DNA from: a virus
Taxonomy: Duplodnaviria > Heunggongvirae > Uroviricota > Caudoviricetes
Reading direction: 5' to 3' (one strand)
Length of the DNA stretch: 64,000 bases
IMG/VR virus record: IMGVR_UViG_3300017747_002194
Location: 1-64,000 of that record
Shown: positions 7,325-53,838 of the stretch, one piece after another
How positions within the stretch are numbered: the first letter of the stretch is position 1
Layout: every line of letters begins with the position of its first letter
Notes under the pieces: generated by a model
The model's database searches: none
What the model was told of the DNA's origin: nothing
The model's input: only the letters and a program-made list of their open reading frames with translations
Translations under genes and position numbers: made by a program

Positions 7325-7350
7325 AACCACTTAGAGAAATCTAGGTGGTT
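7325..7350 (+). terminator. hairpin aaccac-TTAGAGAAATCTAG-gtggtt followed by a T/A run
   Basis: Inverted repeat read directly; it shares the TAGAGAA(A)TCTA loop with hairpins at 33113 and 53807. Confidence 0.5.
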
Positions 7351-7375
7351 TATTATAAAAACTAATCACTAAATT

Positions 7376-7732
7376 ATGAAATACAGAAAAGGAAAATATT
7401 ATAGTGTAGATTTTAGTAAAGAACTTCCAGAAGATCAGCTTGGGAAATATATTTGGATTTGTAATGAAAATAATAAAAGTCATTACTCTTTTAGAGTAAT
7501 AGAAAAAGGTTCTACTAATAGATTTAATGTTAATGACGATTCTTGTTTTAATAAAAATGATAGTCATGCTTGGTCAAAATCTAAATTAGCTACACCAGAA
7601 GAAATTCAATGGTTGAATCTTTGTATTGAACAAGATAAATATATTCCATTTGAAGAGGCTTTATTATTCTATACTCATAAATCAGATTCATCATTGGAAC
7701 CTATCTATAAAAAATTATTAAACATAAACTAA
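7376..7732 (+). CDS. small paralog family member (type 1, ATPEE-W domain) ending LEPIYKKLLNIN
   Basis: KLATPEEIQWLNLC...IPFEEALL core plus the shared C-terminal tail. Confidence 0.7.
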   Translation: MKYRKGKYYSVDFSKELPEDQLGKYIWICNENNKSHYSFRVIEKGSTNRFNVNDDSCFNKNDSHAWSKSKLATPEEIQWLNLCIEQDKYIPFEEALLFYTHKSDSSLEPIYKKLLNIN

Positions 7733-7737
7733 TTACT

Positions 7738-8073
7738 ATGAACAAATTATTAGACAAATACTACCGTATGCTTTACTTCTGTAAAGGAAAACCTACTACA
7801 TTAGGTCAAATGAGTAATTGGGAATTAGAAGGTATTCTATTACATATTGATAAATACCCTAAAGGTATTTTAAATGGATATGATAAACAAGAATACATTA
7901 ATGCTGTAGATTATATTCTTCAATGTAGAGCTAATTCTAAATCAGAAAGAATGAAAATTATTGAAACTAGGCATGCTAATAATGCATTAGATAAAGCTAA
8001 TAAATTAGCTGATGCAATACTATTAGCAATGCTTAAAACTGAACAACAATATAATAAGAGATTAGTATGTTAA
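7738..8073 (+). CDS. hypothetical protein (no family tail)
   Basis: 111-aa ORF within the tandem array. Confidence 0.5.
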   Translation: MNKLLDKYYRMLYFCKGKPTTLGQMSNWELEGILLHIDKYPKGILNGYDKQEYINAVDYILQCRANSKSERMKIIETRHANNALDKANKLADAILLAMLKTEQQYNKRLVC

Positions 8074-51494: not shown

Positions 51495-51530
51495 GTTACA
51501 AATGTATTAATTTAATTAGATAAAAACAAA

Positions 51531-53738
51531 TTATTTTTTACCTTTATATTCTTTCATTATTCTTTGGAATTCAGGAGTATCGTAATATTTCATAAGTAAC
51601 CCTAAAGTCTCTTGATCCATATTAGTCTTTTTATTATCCATCATCTGATTAGCAATATTAGAACCCATTGAACCAATAGCCTCTCCTTTACCAGATCTAT
51701 TTCTAGCTCTATTCATAGCATTAGCAATAACTTCTTGTCTAGCTAATTCATTATTATATTGATTAACAGAGTTAGAAATACCAGCATTAGCATTTTGAAA
51801 TTCATTATGAATTCTAGCTTTGTTCATAGTATTCTGTGCATTTAAAGCAACTCTATTAGATAAATAAGTTCCGGCATTTCCACCACTAGCTCCTCTAACA
51901 TTGTACTCAGCTCTACGATTTTGCATTTCAGCATCTCTTAAAGCAGCTGTAGGATCTAATAAAGTAGCTTTCATTCTTTCATACTTCTCAACTTCTGGTT
52001 TATTATATCTTGATAAATTATAAATGTTACCAGCATTATTAGCTAATCCCATAGCAATATTAGAACCTAATCCTTTCCAATCAAAAGAATTTTTTTCATT
52101 AGCCTGAGCATTCATTCTAGCTAATTCTTGATCATATAAAGTTTGATTTATATTAGATCCTTTACTATTCCAACCATGATTAGCATCAATTTTAGCTGAT
52201 GAATTATTCCATACAGATTCAATATCTCCACCTTCTTCTTCAGGAGTAAGTTTACCAAATTCATATTTAGGTAATTTACCTCCATATTTAAATCCAGTTA
52301 ATTCAATTTCCTTTTTAGTTTCAGGATTAAAGTACATTCTATCTAATACCTCATTACCTTGTTTATATTCCTTATAACTCATATTAGGACCTGTAACAAT
52401 ATTAGTTTTAATAGTACTAGGACTATTAGCAGGAACTTGTTGTAATTGAGGATTAAAATCATCAGATCTTTCAAGACCTTTCATAGGCATATTAACATTA
52501 GAATATGTTGAAGCCATAGGTTTTTTAGCATCTGTATTAATTACAGGGACTGTAGGTTTAGCGTAAGGTACTGAATGACTTTGTAAATAATTAGAATCAT
52601 ATGTAATTTGACGCTTATCAGTAGATTGAGGAGTTTCTCCATTTAATTTATGTAATCTTAAAATAGCATCATTGAATCCAGGTTCTTGTTGCCAGTTAGG
52701 TACATTCTTATTGAATCCTGATTTATATAAAGTTAAACTATCATTGTAAGCTTGTTGTCTTTGAGCAGGTGTATACTTAGTATTATCTGTAGGACCTCCT
52801 AAAGGATACATAGGTAATTTAACACCACCCATTGGAAACTCAGTAGATTGCTCTTCTTGAGGTAATGTTACTCCCATCTTTTTAGCATAAGCTTCTACTT
52901 TAGCTTTCTTTAAAGATTCTTGAATATTAAACAATGCTTCAGAGTTTTTATTTTTAGCCATCTTCATTAATTCAGCAGTAGACTTAGAAGTACTACCATA
53001 TTTATTAGATTCTAAAATCTTATCTTCTTTATTAGTATTATTAGCTTTATTTAAATCAGCAAAAGTTTTTTTACCTAATTTTAGTCTATCTGAAAATATC
53101 ATTGAGTTTCCTGGTAAAGCTACTGGTACCCCACCTTGATCATGGCTAGGTCCATCTGCTTGTAAAAAACCTCCATTAGGAGCAACTACATTTTCTTCTT
53201 TCTCAATCTCAGCATTAGGAGCTTGAGATAATCCTCCATGAGAAAATATATTACTTCCTAAATTATTTAGACTACCTAATCCATGTTCTTCCCTATCTTT
53301 ATTATTAAATAGACCTTCACCATCAATAGCATGAGTTATAAGTTTATGTGGTTCAAAGAAATATTGAGAACCAGCATTAGCTCCTTTAGTACCTACAGCA
53401 GATTGTCCAGCTTCTGAAATACCGTGAAATAAACTAGCCATTGGGATAGCACTAGCTACACCAGATTGTACAACATCAGCTGTCCCTTCAGAACCTCCTT
53501 GACTTTGCCAAGAACCTTTAGAAGAATTATTTATTTTATAGTTAGGATCAGAATAAGCTGCTTGATTATTAGCAGTAGCATAAGATGTCCCAGCAGCCCC
53601 TAAAGCTTGATACATACTATTTTTTTGAGTATTAGTCAATCTTTTATCACTGTATAGATTAGAAGTAGCATCTCCACCTGTACCTCCTTCTGGAAATTTA
53701 GGTAAATATGTCTTAGGGATTTTTTTAGATTTTTTCAT
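51531..53738 (-). CDS. virion structural protein (735 aa), G/N/Q/S-rich
   Basis: Low-complexity G/N/S-rich composition typical of tail or fibre components. Confidence 0.55.
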   Translation of the reverse strand: MKKSKKIPKTYLPKFPEGGTGGDATSNLYSDKRLTNTQKNSMYQALGAAGTSYATANNQAAYSDPNYKINNSSKGSWQSQGGSEGTADVVQSGVASAIPMASLFHGISEAGQSAVGTKGANAGSQYFFEPHKLITHAIDGEGLFNNKDREEHGLGSLNNLGSNIFSHGGLSQAPNAEIEKEENVVAPNGGFLQADGPSHDQGGVPVALPGNSMIFSDRLKLGKKTFADLNKANNTNKEDKILESNKYGSTSKSTAELMKMAKNKNSEALFNIQESLKKAKVEAYAKKMGVTLPQEEQSTEFPMGGVKLPMYPLGGPTDNTKYTPAQRQQAYNDSLTLYKSGFNKNVPNWQQEPGFNDAILRLHKLNGETPQSTDKRQITYDSNYLQSHSVPYAKPTVPVINTDAKKPMASTYSNVNMPMKGLERSDDFNPQLQQVPANSPSTIKTNIVTGPNMSYKEYKQGNEVLDRMYFNPETKKEIELTGFKYGGKLPKYEFGKLTPEEEGGDIESVWNNSSAKIDANHGWNSKGSNINQTLYDQELARMNAQANEKNSFDWKGLGSNIAMGLANNAGNIYNLSRYNKPEVEKYERMKATLLDPTAALRDAEMQNRRAEYNVRGASGGNAGTYLSNRVALNAQNTMNKARIHNEFQNANAGISNSVNQYNNELARQEVIANAMNRARNRSGKGEAIGSMGSNIANQMMDNKKTNMDQETLGLLMKYYDTPEFQRIMKEYKGKK

Positions 53739-53806
53739 GGTATAACGAATTTAGTTATATTGTATTATATAATATAGTGTATTTTTTTGTAATATGCAAA
53801 TAAAAA

Positions 53807-53838
53807 CCCCAGTATTTTAGAGAATCTAATAACTGGGG
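53807..53838 (-). terminator. hairpin cccc...TTTAGAGAATCTAA...gggg with a T-run on the minus strand
   Basis: 7-bp stem ccccagt/actgggg. Third copy of the TAGAGAA(A)TCTA loop motif, lying between minus-strand genes. Confidence 0.5.

Follow-up and report, generated by a model that had tools for sequence, protein, structure and literature searches.

The three hairpins described here lie in positions 1 to 64,000 of the IMG/VR virus record IMGVR_UViG_3300017747_002194, a 64-kb stretch of phage genome that we call the window and to which all window counts refer. The window has a G+C content of 28%, and its genes are densely packed: the intergenic DNA covers 2,995 nucleotides (nt), or 4.7% of the window, with 17 gaps of at least 25 nt. 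As far as ~33.1 kb the genes are encoded on the + strand; the - strand takes over at 33.25 kb, and the two blocks meet at a convergent strand switch. The hairpins share the sequence TAGAGAA(A)TCTA, and the coordinates and sequences quoted for them in the original prediction, which was made from the sequence alone, were all exact.

7325-7350, + strand: site 1, AACCACTTAGAGAAATCTAGGTGGTT
33113-33142 (full stem 33111-33144), both strands: site 2, AAACCCTCCTAGAGAAATCTAAGAGGGTTT
53807-53838, - strand: site 3, CCCCAGTATTTTAGAGAATCTAATAACTGGGG

The window is a freshwater crAss-like phage. It shows the features of Crassvirales, i.e. a virion RNA polymerase (RNAP) with a DFDxD motif, a crAss ring protein (PF25702 CrAss_Ring_2, on a product of 237 amino acids (aa)) and convergent replication and virion blocks. 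The motif reads DFDID and lies at residue 3006 of a 4060-aa open reading frame (ORF; 37146-49328, - strand), which matches the RNAP subunit g066 of phage phi14:2 in tblastn. The similarity to g066 is weak, the ORF is nearly twice as long, and no Pfam family matched it; apparently it encodes a giant virion RNAP that arose by fusion. A 1149-aa ORF is similar to phi14:2 g065, and a 1637-aa ORF is a homologue of phi14:2 g071, also by tblastn. Proteins identical to those of the window were found in short contigs, two of them from the JGI metagenome samples 3300017707 and 3300022179, and exact-protein look-ups led to contigs of 1.5-6 kb only, from the same or near-identical strains. Megablast of the window against the GenBank phages gave no match, the window was absent from the viral and metagenome contig collections, and a search of the metagenome contigs with a segment from the middle of the giant ORF yielded no relative.

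All three hairpins occupy boundaries between genes or gene blocks. They had been placed after tRNA genes, at the convergent junction and between two virion genes, and these positions are correct. Site 1 is 114 nt past the tRNA, and the next ORF begins 26 nt downstream. Site 2 lies between the ORFs 32902-33102 (the last one on the + strand) and 33250-36699 (the first one on the - strand), and site 3 is flanked by the 1637-aa g071-like virion gene and a 735-aa ORF. The features next to the sites are the following.

7060-7132, + strand: tRNA-Met (ARAGORN/Rfam search)
7136-7211, + strand: second tRNA (37.1 bits in the sensitive mode of Rfam versus a gathering score of 29; not called by ARAGORN)
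33145-33249, - strand: conserved non-coding stretch (~105 nt) that separates site 2 from the stop codon of the 1149-aa gene
~53760-53806, - strand: promoter-like block TTGCAT-N17-TATATT, directly after site 3

The original prediction described the shared bases as a conserved loop carried by different stems. The sequence is indeed common to all three sites, but it is not a loop of 13-14 nt, as folding pairs TAGA with TCTA. The shared bases thus form the upper stem plus a GAAA tetraloop (or a GAA loop), which we call the tip. Each site is one long helix with a stem of 11-15 base pairs (bp), capped on the + strand by GAAA at sites 1 and 2 and by GAA at site 3. The structures and the folding energies of the RNA are given below.

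Site 1, + strand: 11-bp stem AACCAC-U.G-TAGA / TCTA-GTGGTT with a GAAA loop; -14.8 kcal/mol (z score -5.5) for the + RNA and -10.5 for the - RNA
Site 2, - strand: 15-bp stem with a UUUC loop and the tail TTTTTAATTT (terminator scanner: 15 pairs, loop 4); -20.7 kcal/mol (15 bp)
Site 2, + strand: 8+4 bp with a C/A mismatch, a GAAA loop and the tail CTTATAAA; -15.5 kcal/mol
Site 3, - strand: basal stem of 7 bp (CCCCAGT/ACTGGGG), internal loop, upper stem TTAGA/TCTAA, UUC loop and the tail TTTTTATTT; -15.2 kcal/mol, and -14.5 for the + RNA

The hairpins on the transcribed strands therefore have energies of -14.8, -20.7 and -15.2 kcal/mol, with z scores from -3.7 to -5.5 and loops of 3-4 nt. The tails differ in quality. 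The tail of site 1, TATTATAA, is only moderately U-rich; its U tract is TTTATTAT if the final stem bases are counted, which is weaker than at the other sites, and the terminator scanner does not list it. Site 2 has the U-rich stretch TTTCTTAT on the + strand, and site 3 has a U tail on the - strand only and none on the + strand. The pair that adjoins the tip is a wobble, U.G only in the + strand RNA of site 1 and U.G in the - strand RNA of site 2, so that both hairpins are best on the mainly transcribed strand, which argues for a structure formed at the RNA level. The transcribed strands present different loops: GAAA at site 1, UUUC at site 2 (-) and UUC at site 3 (-). The half-sites are 4, 4 and 3 nt apart at sites 1, 2 and 3, respectively. 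All three sites carry the GAA(A) of the tip on the + strand, even though transcription uses the - strand at site 3 and in the stronger direction of site 2.

The similarity of the three tips is not accidental. The exact 12-mer occurs twice in the window versus 0.01 expected, only at these hairpins, and none of the 100 shuffled sequences had two or more copies. With the optional A there are three occurrences, all intergenic, versus 0.43 expected, and one of the 100 shuffles reached three. Looser patterns do not separate from the background: the 12-mer with at most one mismatch occurs 3 times versus 2.0 expected, which is uninformative, and TAGA-N3-4-TCTA in general occurs 12 times versus 8.7 expected, i.e. 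no enrichment. Sites 1-3 are the three strongest hairpins of the intergenic DNA other than those of tRNAs. A cutoff of 9 or more pairs and no more than one mismatch leaves six hairpins in the whole window, namely sites 1 and 2 and four in coding DNA. Two random hairpins have an identical tip (4 bp plus loop) with p = 6.6e-5, as estimated from an outside sample of 889 terminator-like hairpins. Sites 1 and 2 are also alike outside the tip (10/20 and 9-10/20 identities in the two flanks versus a background of 5.95 +/- 2.07). Site 3 shares the tip alone with sites 1 and 2, and the copies are 20-26 kb apart. A candidate fourth copy at 15888-15924 (+ strand; TTAGA-TTG-TCTAA, -13.3 kcal/mol) was rejected, as it is inside a continuous 316-aa ORF, has no U tract and is probably a chance occurrence.

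The sites have the anatomy of intrinsic terminators, with a G+C-rich lower stem, the A+T-rich upper stem TAGA/TCTA, a loop of 3-4 nt and a U-rich tail. In each case a stable, G+C-containing hairpin is followed by a U-rich tract (weaker at site 1) at the 3' end of a unit. Among the functions proposed originally, that of terminator-type elements at the boundaries of transcription units is the one that stems, U tails and positions all fit. Our analysis suggests that the three sites are probably intrinsic terminators that form a lineage-specific family of related copies, for which no reader of the tip is needed. Site 1 would end or attenuate the + strand unit that carries the two tRNA genes, site 2 would serve as a two-way terminator that stops both converging blocks, and site 3 would end the g071-like virion gene just ahead of a conserved host-type promoter. 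Termination would use the ordinary hairpin-plus-U-tract mechanism, as predicted from the sequence, most likely acting on the host RNAP because the window is crAss-like and a host-type promoter-like block follows site 3. In sensitive Rfam searches sites 2 and 3 gave mostly weak, sub-threshold matches to small RNAs and leaders, many of them at the 3' (terminator) end of the family.

We infer that one terminator module was copied within the genome lineage at the DNA level, and that the lower stems may then have diverged or been re-fitted to the local direction of transcription. The orientation of the tip, which is the same on the + strand whatever the direction of transcription, fits copying of DNA. 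The UUC and UUUC loops on the - strand argue against a selection for GNRA tetraloops and also against one common RNA motif as the target of a protein. The families of related terminator copies in other phages count for copying as well. In the viral contig L008, GAGnCTTAGAGAAATCTrrGnCTCTTTTCTTTT is present four times in 1.6 kb (- strand, 3700-5400), behind small ORFs, and the viral contig L209 has four near-identical terminators of the ATATCCCTTGATGAAAGTCAAGGGATAT type within 2 kb (6553-8630).

Several observations weigh against this reading. The lower stem of site 3 is wholly different, and its flanks are orthologous to those of relatives with unrelated tips, so a simple duplication of the whole hairpin fails for site 3; we know of no established mechanism that copies ~12 nt alone into an existing hairpin. 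The window is also unusual in this respect. Ten of the 475 comparison loci (~4 Mb) have a pair of hairpins with an identical tip, and 9-10 of those are duplicates of the whole hairpin, which leaves 0-1 of the 475 loci with an identical tip on a different base. Given the rarity of this pattern, the tip may be under selection. Site 1 may be an attenuator or a 3'-end stabiliser instead of a full stop, because its U tract is weak and the DNA up to the next gene shows no promoter.

The relatives of the phage keep the orthologous terminators in position, flanks and hairpin, and do not keep the tip. The site 2 orthologues read AAACCCCTTAG-TGATTG-CTAAGGGGTTT in four contigs (TTAG-TGATTG-CTAA) and AAAGCCCTTT-TAGA-TTTAATT-TCTG-AAAGGGCTTT in two others, the latter with a partial resemblance to the tip. 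At site 3 the orthologues have TCAA-TTAGT-TTGA or TTAC-TTAACT-GTAA inside invariant flanks. The central 11 bases in L122 and L484 have 3-5/11 identities with site 3 and are as unlike as random sequences, while the flanks are near-identical. More distant relatives also have hairpins after tRNAs, analogous to site 1, and these are unrelated to it. No tip is common to the other terminators in the relatives' loci, and the terminators of phi14:2 do not share one among themselves either. As judged from these sequences, the shared tip belongs to this genome lineage alone, since the relatives have different tips and the phi14:2 terminators have none in common; a family-wide feature of crAss-like phages is ruled out on the same grounds. 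Close strains keep the hairpins of sites 1 and 2. The site 1 hairpin is 26/26 identical in the strain contig L519, while the nearby spacer has a few substitutions, and at site 2 the contigs of close strains show no difference.

The comparison with the relatives also characterizes the neighbours of sites 2 and 3. The stretch at 33145-33249 is kept at the nucleotide level in L123 (13433-13535), L124, L486 and L487, with proteins 57-65% identical to those of the window; it includes a hairpin GTAGC-N5-GCTAC with a variable loop, and L488 and L489 do not have the stretch. The site 2 terminator hence closes a structured 3' region of ~140 nt, and the stretch is a candidate for a small RNA derived from the 3' untranslated region. 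The ~45-nt promoter-like block after site 3 is near-identical in L122 and L484 (~9941-9985; one substitution in L484), with proteins 70-74% identical. Its position matches that of the middle promoter of phi14:2, which lies upstream of g070, and the block is probably the equivalent of this promoter, P070. A second TTGCAT-N17-TATATT is found at position 23150 (+ strand). Two other side observations concern the tRNA region and the end of the genome. The second tRNA (7136-7211) has an anticodon loop or an insert that is apparently unusually long. The gap at 2771-3321 (551 nt) is non-coding and has strong structures, including a tRNA-like T-arm hairpin (3272-3304, GAGGGTTCGACTCCCTC), and no tRNA is called there; phi14:2 has long, highly transcribed intergenic regions near the same end of the genome.

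We looked for the tip in large databases. The 16-mer CYTAGAGAAATCTARG is in a terminator context in 97/121 of the IMG/VR matches listed (74 distinct flanks), with longer stems and T runs, in loci of 27-53% G+C, whereas a control of the same composition, CYTGAAGAAATTCARG, is in such a context in 5/120 of the matches listed. This apparent 10- to 90-fold enrichment could be taken for a universally favoured terminator cap. An unbiased degenerate scan with CTNNNAGAAATNNNAGNNNTTTT (CT-NNN-AGAAAT-NNN-AG-NNN-TTTT) ruled this out, as it gave ~64 true hairpins with varied stems, of which 3-4 (~5%) have TAG/CTA and 4 have the control stem TCA/TGA. The enrichment arises because the control k-mer has a coding background ((L/P)EEIQ). 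Terminators with an A-GAAA-T cap are thus common, and TAG/CTA is just one stem among many that carry it. In the sampled phage DNA, terminator-like hairpins have GAAA as their commonest loop. The control loci also spoke against a favoured cap, as none of their 839 terminator-like hairpins (in 1 Mb) carried the tip.

The 16-mer is also in a terminator context in 73/126 of the matches listed for bacterial genomes, for which there was no control k-mer. These matches span Bacteroidota, Bacillota, Proteobacteria and Holophagae. In 23/28 bacterial loci, which were picked for an upstream context resembling a tRNA 3' end, it follows a tRNA gene by 6-13 nt, and among the matches listed a near-identical hairpin, AAAGCCTTAGAGAAATCTAAGGCTTT, comes after the tRNAs for Asp, Phe, Arg and Leu in several genera of Bacteroidota. 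The tRNA-linked hairpins of Bacteroidota are in L249, L251, L290, L299, L301, L315, L316, L318 and L346. In Holophagae/Geothrix (56-68% G+C) the same A+T-rich tip is found after tRNA-Glu with varying lower stems, among the matches listed. A different repeat that contains the 16-mer, ggcaaaCTTAGAGAAATCTAAGgacgcaaa(a/g)ctatagg, is present in L261 (3180-3471), L274, L337 and L341, Bacillota metagenome-assembled genomes among them; it is repeated three times at a spacing of 138 nt in L261, with no extension of the stem and no T run.

The original prediction favoured a site recognized by a sequence-specific protein or by a phage RNAP. In a broader form, the tip would be the recognition element for a trans-acting factor, either as an RNA apex or as palindromic DNA, which modulates termination, antitermination, processing or the stability of the 3' end. 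The sharing of the tip far above chance would fit such a factor, as would the rarity of the same tip on different bases among the comparison loci and the unchanged site 1 hairpin in the strain with an altered spacer next to it. However, the tip is absent from the orthologous terminators of the relatives, and phi14:2 shares none. The RNA motif presented is not a single one, as it varies with the site from GAAA to UUUC and UUC, and the 16-mer caps terminators of numerous unrelated phages and bacteria. At the DNA level, half-sites spaced by 4 nt in one place and 3 nt in another would hardly be tolerated by a dimeric binder, and the U.G asymmetry favours a constraint on the RNA rather than on the DNA. 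No Rfam family covers the sites: searches of Rfam 15 at the gathering and the sensitive thresholds passed only tRNAs. A literature search by the tip sequence returned unrelated eukaryotic matches only, and the papers on crAss transcription mention no terminator motif. We thus consider a trans-acting reader unlikely. An antiterminator was also among the original proposals; the boxB/nut type does not agree with a tetraloop or triloop on a long stem that is directly followed by a U tract at the end of a unit.

Selection on the tip within the lineage could act through a phage or host protein that binds the UUAGA/UCUAR helix or through kissing and pairing of the 3' hairpins of the converging blocks. 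With two G.U pairs, the 16-nt tip of site 1 (+) can pair along its full length with that of site 2 (-), and kissing hairpins, if true, would couple the fate of the transcripts of the replication block and the virion block. We hold this to be quite unlikely, and likewise a wider version in which the CYUAGAGAAAUCUARG cap would itself serve some function in bacteria, e.g. behind tRNA genes. The same bacterial matches could point to terminators derived from, or mimicking, those of a Bacteroidota host in which this type is common after tRNA genes. The 16-mer is 6-13 nt past a tRNA in 23/28 of the loci checked, AAAGCCTTAGAGAAATCTAAGGCTTT recurs behind different tRNAs in several genera, and site 1 likewise follows tRNA genes. 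Yet the 28 loci were chosen beforehand by their tRNA-like upstream context and have no control, so an enrichment is not established; the distance at site 1 is 114 nt and not ~10 nt, and relatives with tRNAs at the same place carry unrelated hairpins. A host origin is therefore improbable in our view.

Independent convergence on a generically favoured A+T-rich stem with an A-GAAA-U cap would agree with GAAA as the commonest loop in the sampled phage hairpins, with the abundance of A-GAAA-T capped terminators on all kinds of stems, and with the recurrence of the exact 16-mer on terminators of the four bacterial groups. Against it stand the probability of only ~6.6e-5 that two random hairpins share a tip, the share of only ~5% that TAG/CTA has among the A-GAAA-T caps, and the lack of any copy among the 839 hairpins of the 1 Mb of control loci. 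In addition, site 3 and the stronger direction of site 2 are transcribed as UUC and UUUC, so the stability of a tetraloop is not selective there. Convergence has a low probability. The sites could instead be for RNA processing or stability, either of the RNase III type or as 3' stabilisers like those of T7 and T4, and not be terminators. The hairpins are at gene boundaries, and site 1 is within a + strand unit with no visible downstream promoter, as such sites might be. On the other hand, stems of 11-15 bp are short for RNase III (typically ~20 bp or more), and on the transcribed strands the stems run straight into U-rich tails, so we find this very unlikely.

A promoter-like element had been suggested as well, and a phage with a giant virion RNAP (DFDID, similar to phi14:2 g066) could in principle use hairpin promoters or start signals like those of N4. 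The N4 promoters have a stem of 5-7 bp and a loop of 3 nt, lie upstream of early genes and are read by a T7-like virion RNAP. The sites of the window, in contrast, are at the 3' ends of genes and gene blocks, have U tracts and have longer stems (11-15 bp), and the crAss-type (two-barrel) RNAP is unrelated to that of N4; this makes a start signal extremely improbable. The early transcripts of phi14:2 have no common upstream motif. We also tried to read TAGATTTC as a Bacteroidota -7 promoter (TAnnTTTG) and rejected it, since the critical G is missing and the match at site 3 is worse.

If the terminator-copy explanation is true, the three well-defined terminators would provide a map of the transcription units of an uncultured freshwater crAss-like phage and a clean case of related terminator copies in one genome, which is useful for annotation and unsurprising. 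A tip read by a factor would matter more in view of the control of termination in crAss-like phages, about which, to our knowledge, nothing is known. There are two general lessons. When a "conserved loop" is self-complementary, it probably belongs to the stem, and a hairpin-shaped k-mer found mostly in terminators across databases does not prove a special role.

Among the known systems, the RNase III sites of T7 are also sequence-related hairpins at the boundaries of phage genes, but they are longer, have internal loops and are cleaved, whereas the window has stems of 11-15 bp and then U tracts. The boxB of the lambda nut sites is a small hairpin with a GNRA-like loop that is read by a phage protein. 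It has a 5-bp stem and a pentaloop and lies with boxA downstream of early promoters, whereas our sites have a long stem with a tetraloop or triloop at the ends of units. Phage T4 reportedly has C(UUCG)G hairpins, and GNRA and UUCG loops are said to be over-represented in terminators. Stable tetraloop hairpins of the T4 type likewise place a recurring short cap between phage genes with no protein reader needed. Here, however, the A-GAAA-U cap is found only at site 1 and site 2 (+), UUUC and UUC are not special tetraloops, and the shared part reaches 4-5 bp into the stem.

The closest likeness is to intrinsic terminators, including the two-way ones. They have the same G+C-rich stem, short loop, U-rich tail and position at the end of a unit, and those working both ways have an A tract upstream, as here. 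The window differs from ordinary intrinsic terminators by the identical 11-12 nt tip on unrelated lower stems and by the weak U tract of site 1. Families of repeated terminators, such as those of L008, L209 and the Algoriphagus tRNA arrays (L318), have several terminators made from one sequence, as in the window. These families repeat the whole hairpin together with the T tract, whereas site 3 of the window shares the tip only. The L008 family even carries the same TTAGAGAAATCTRAG tip as the window.

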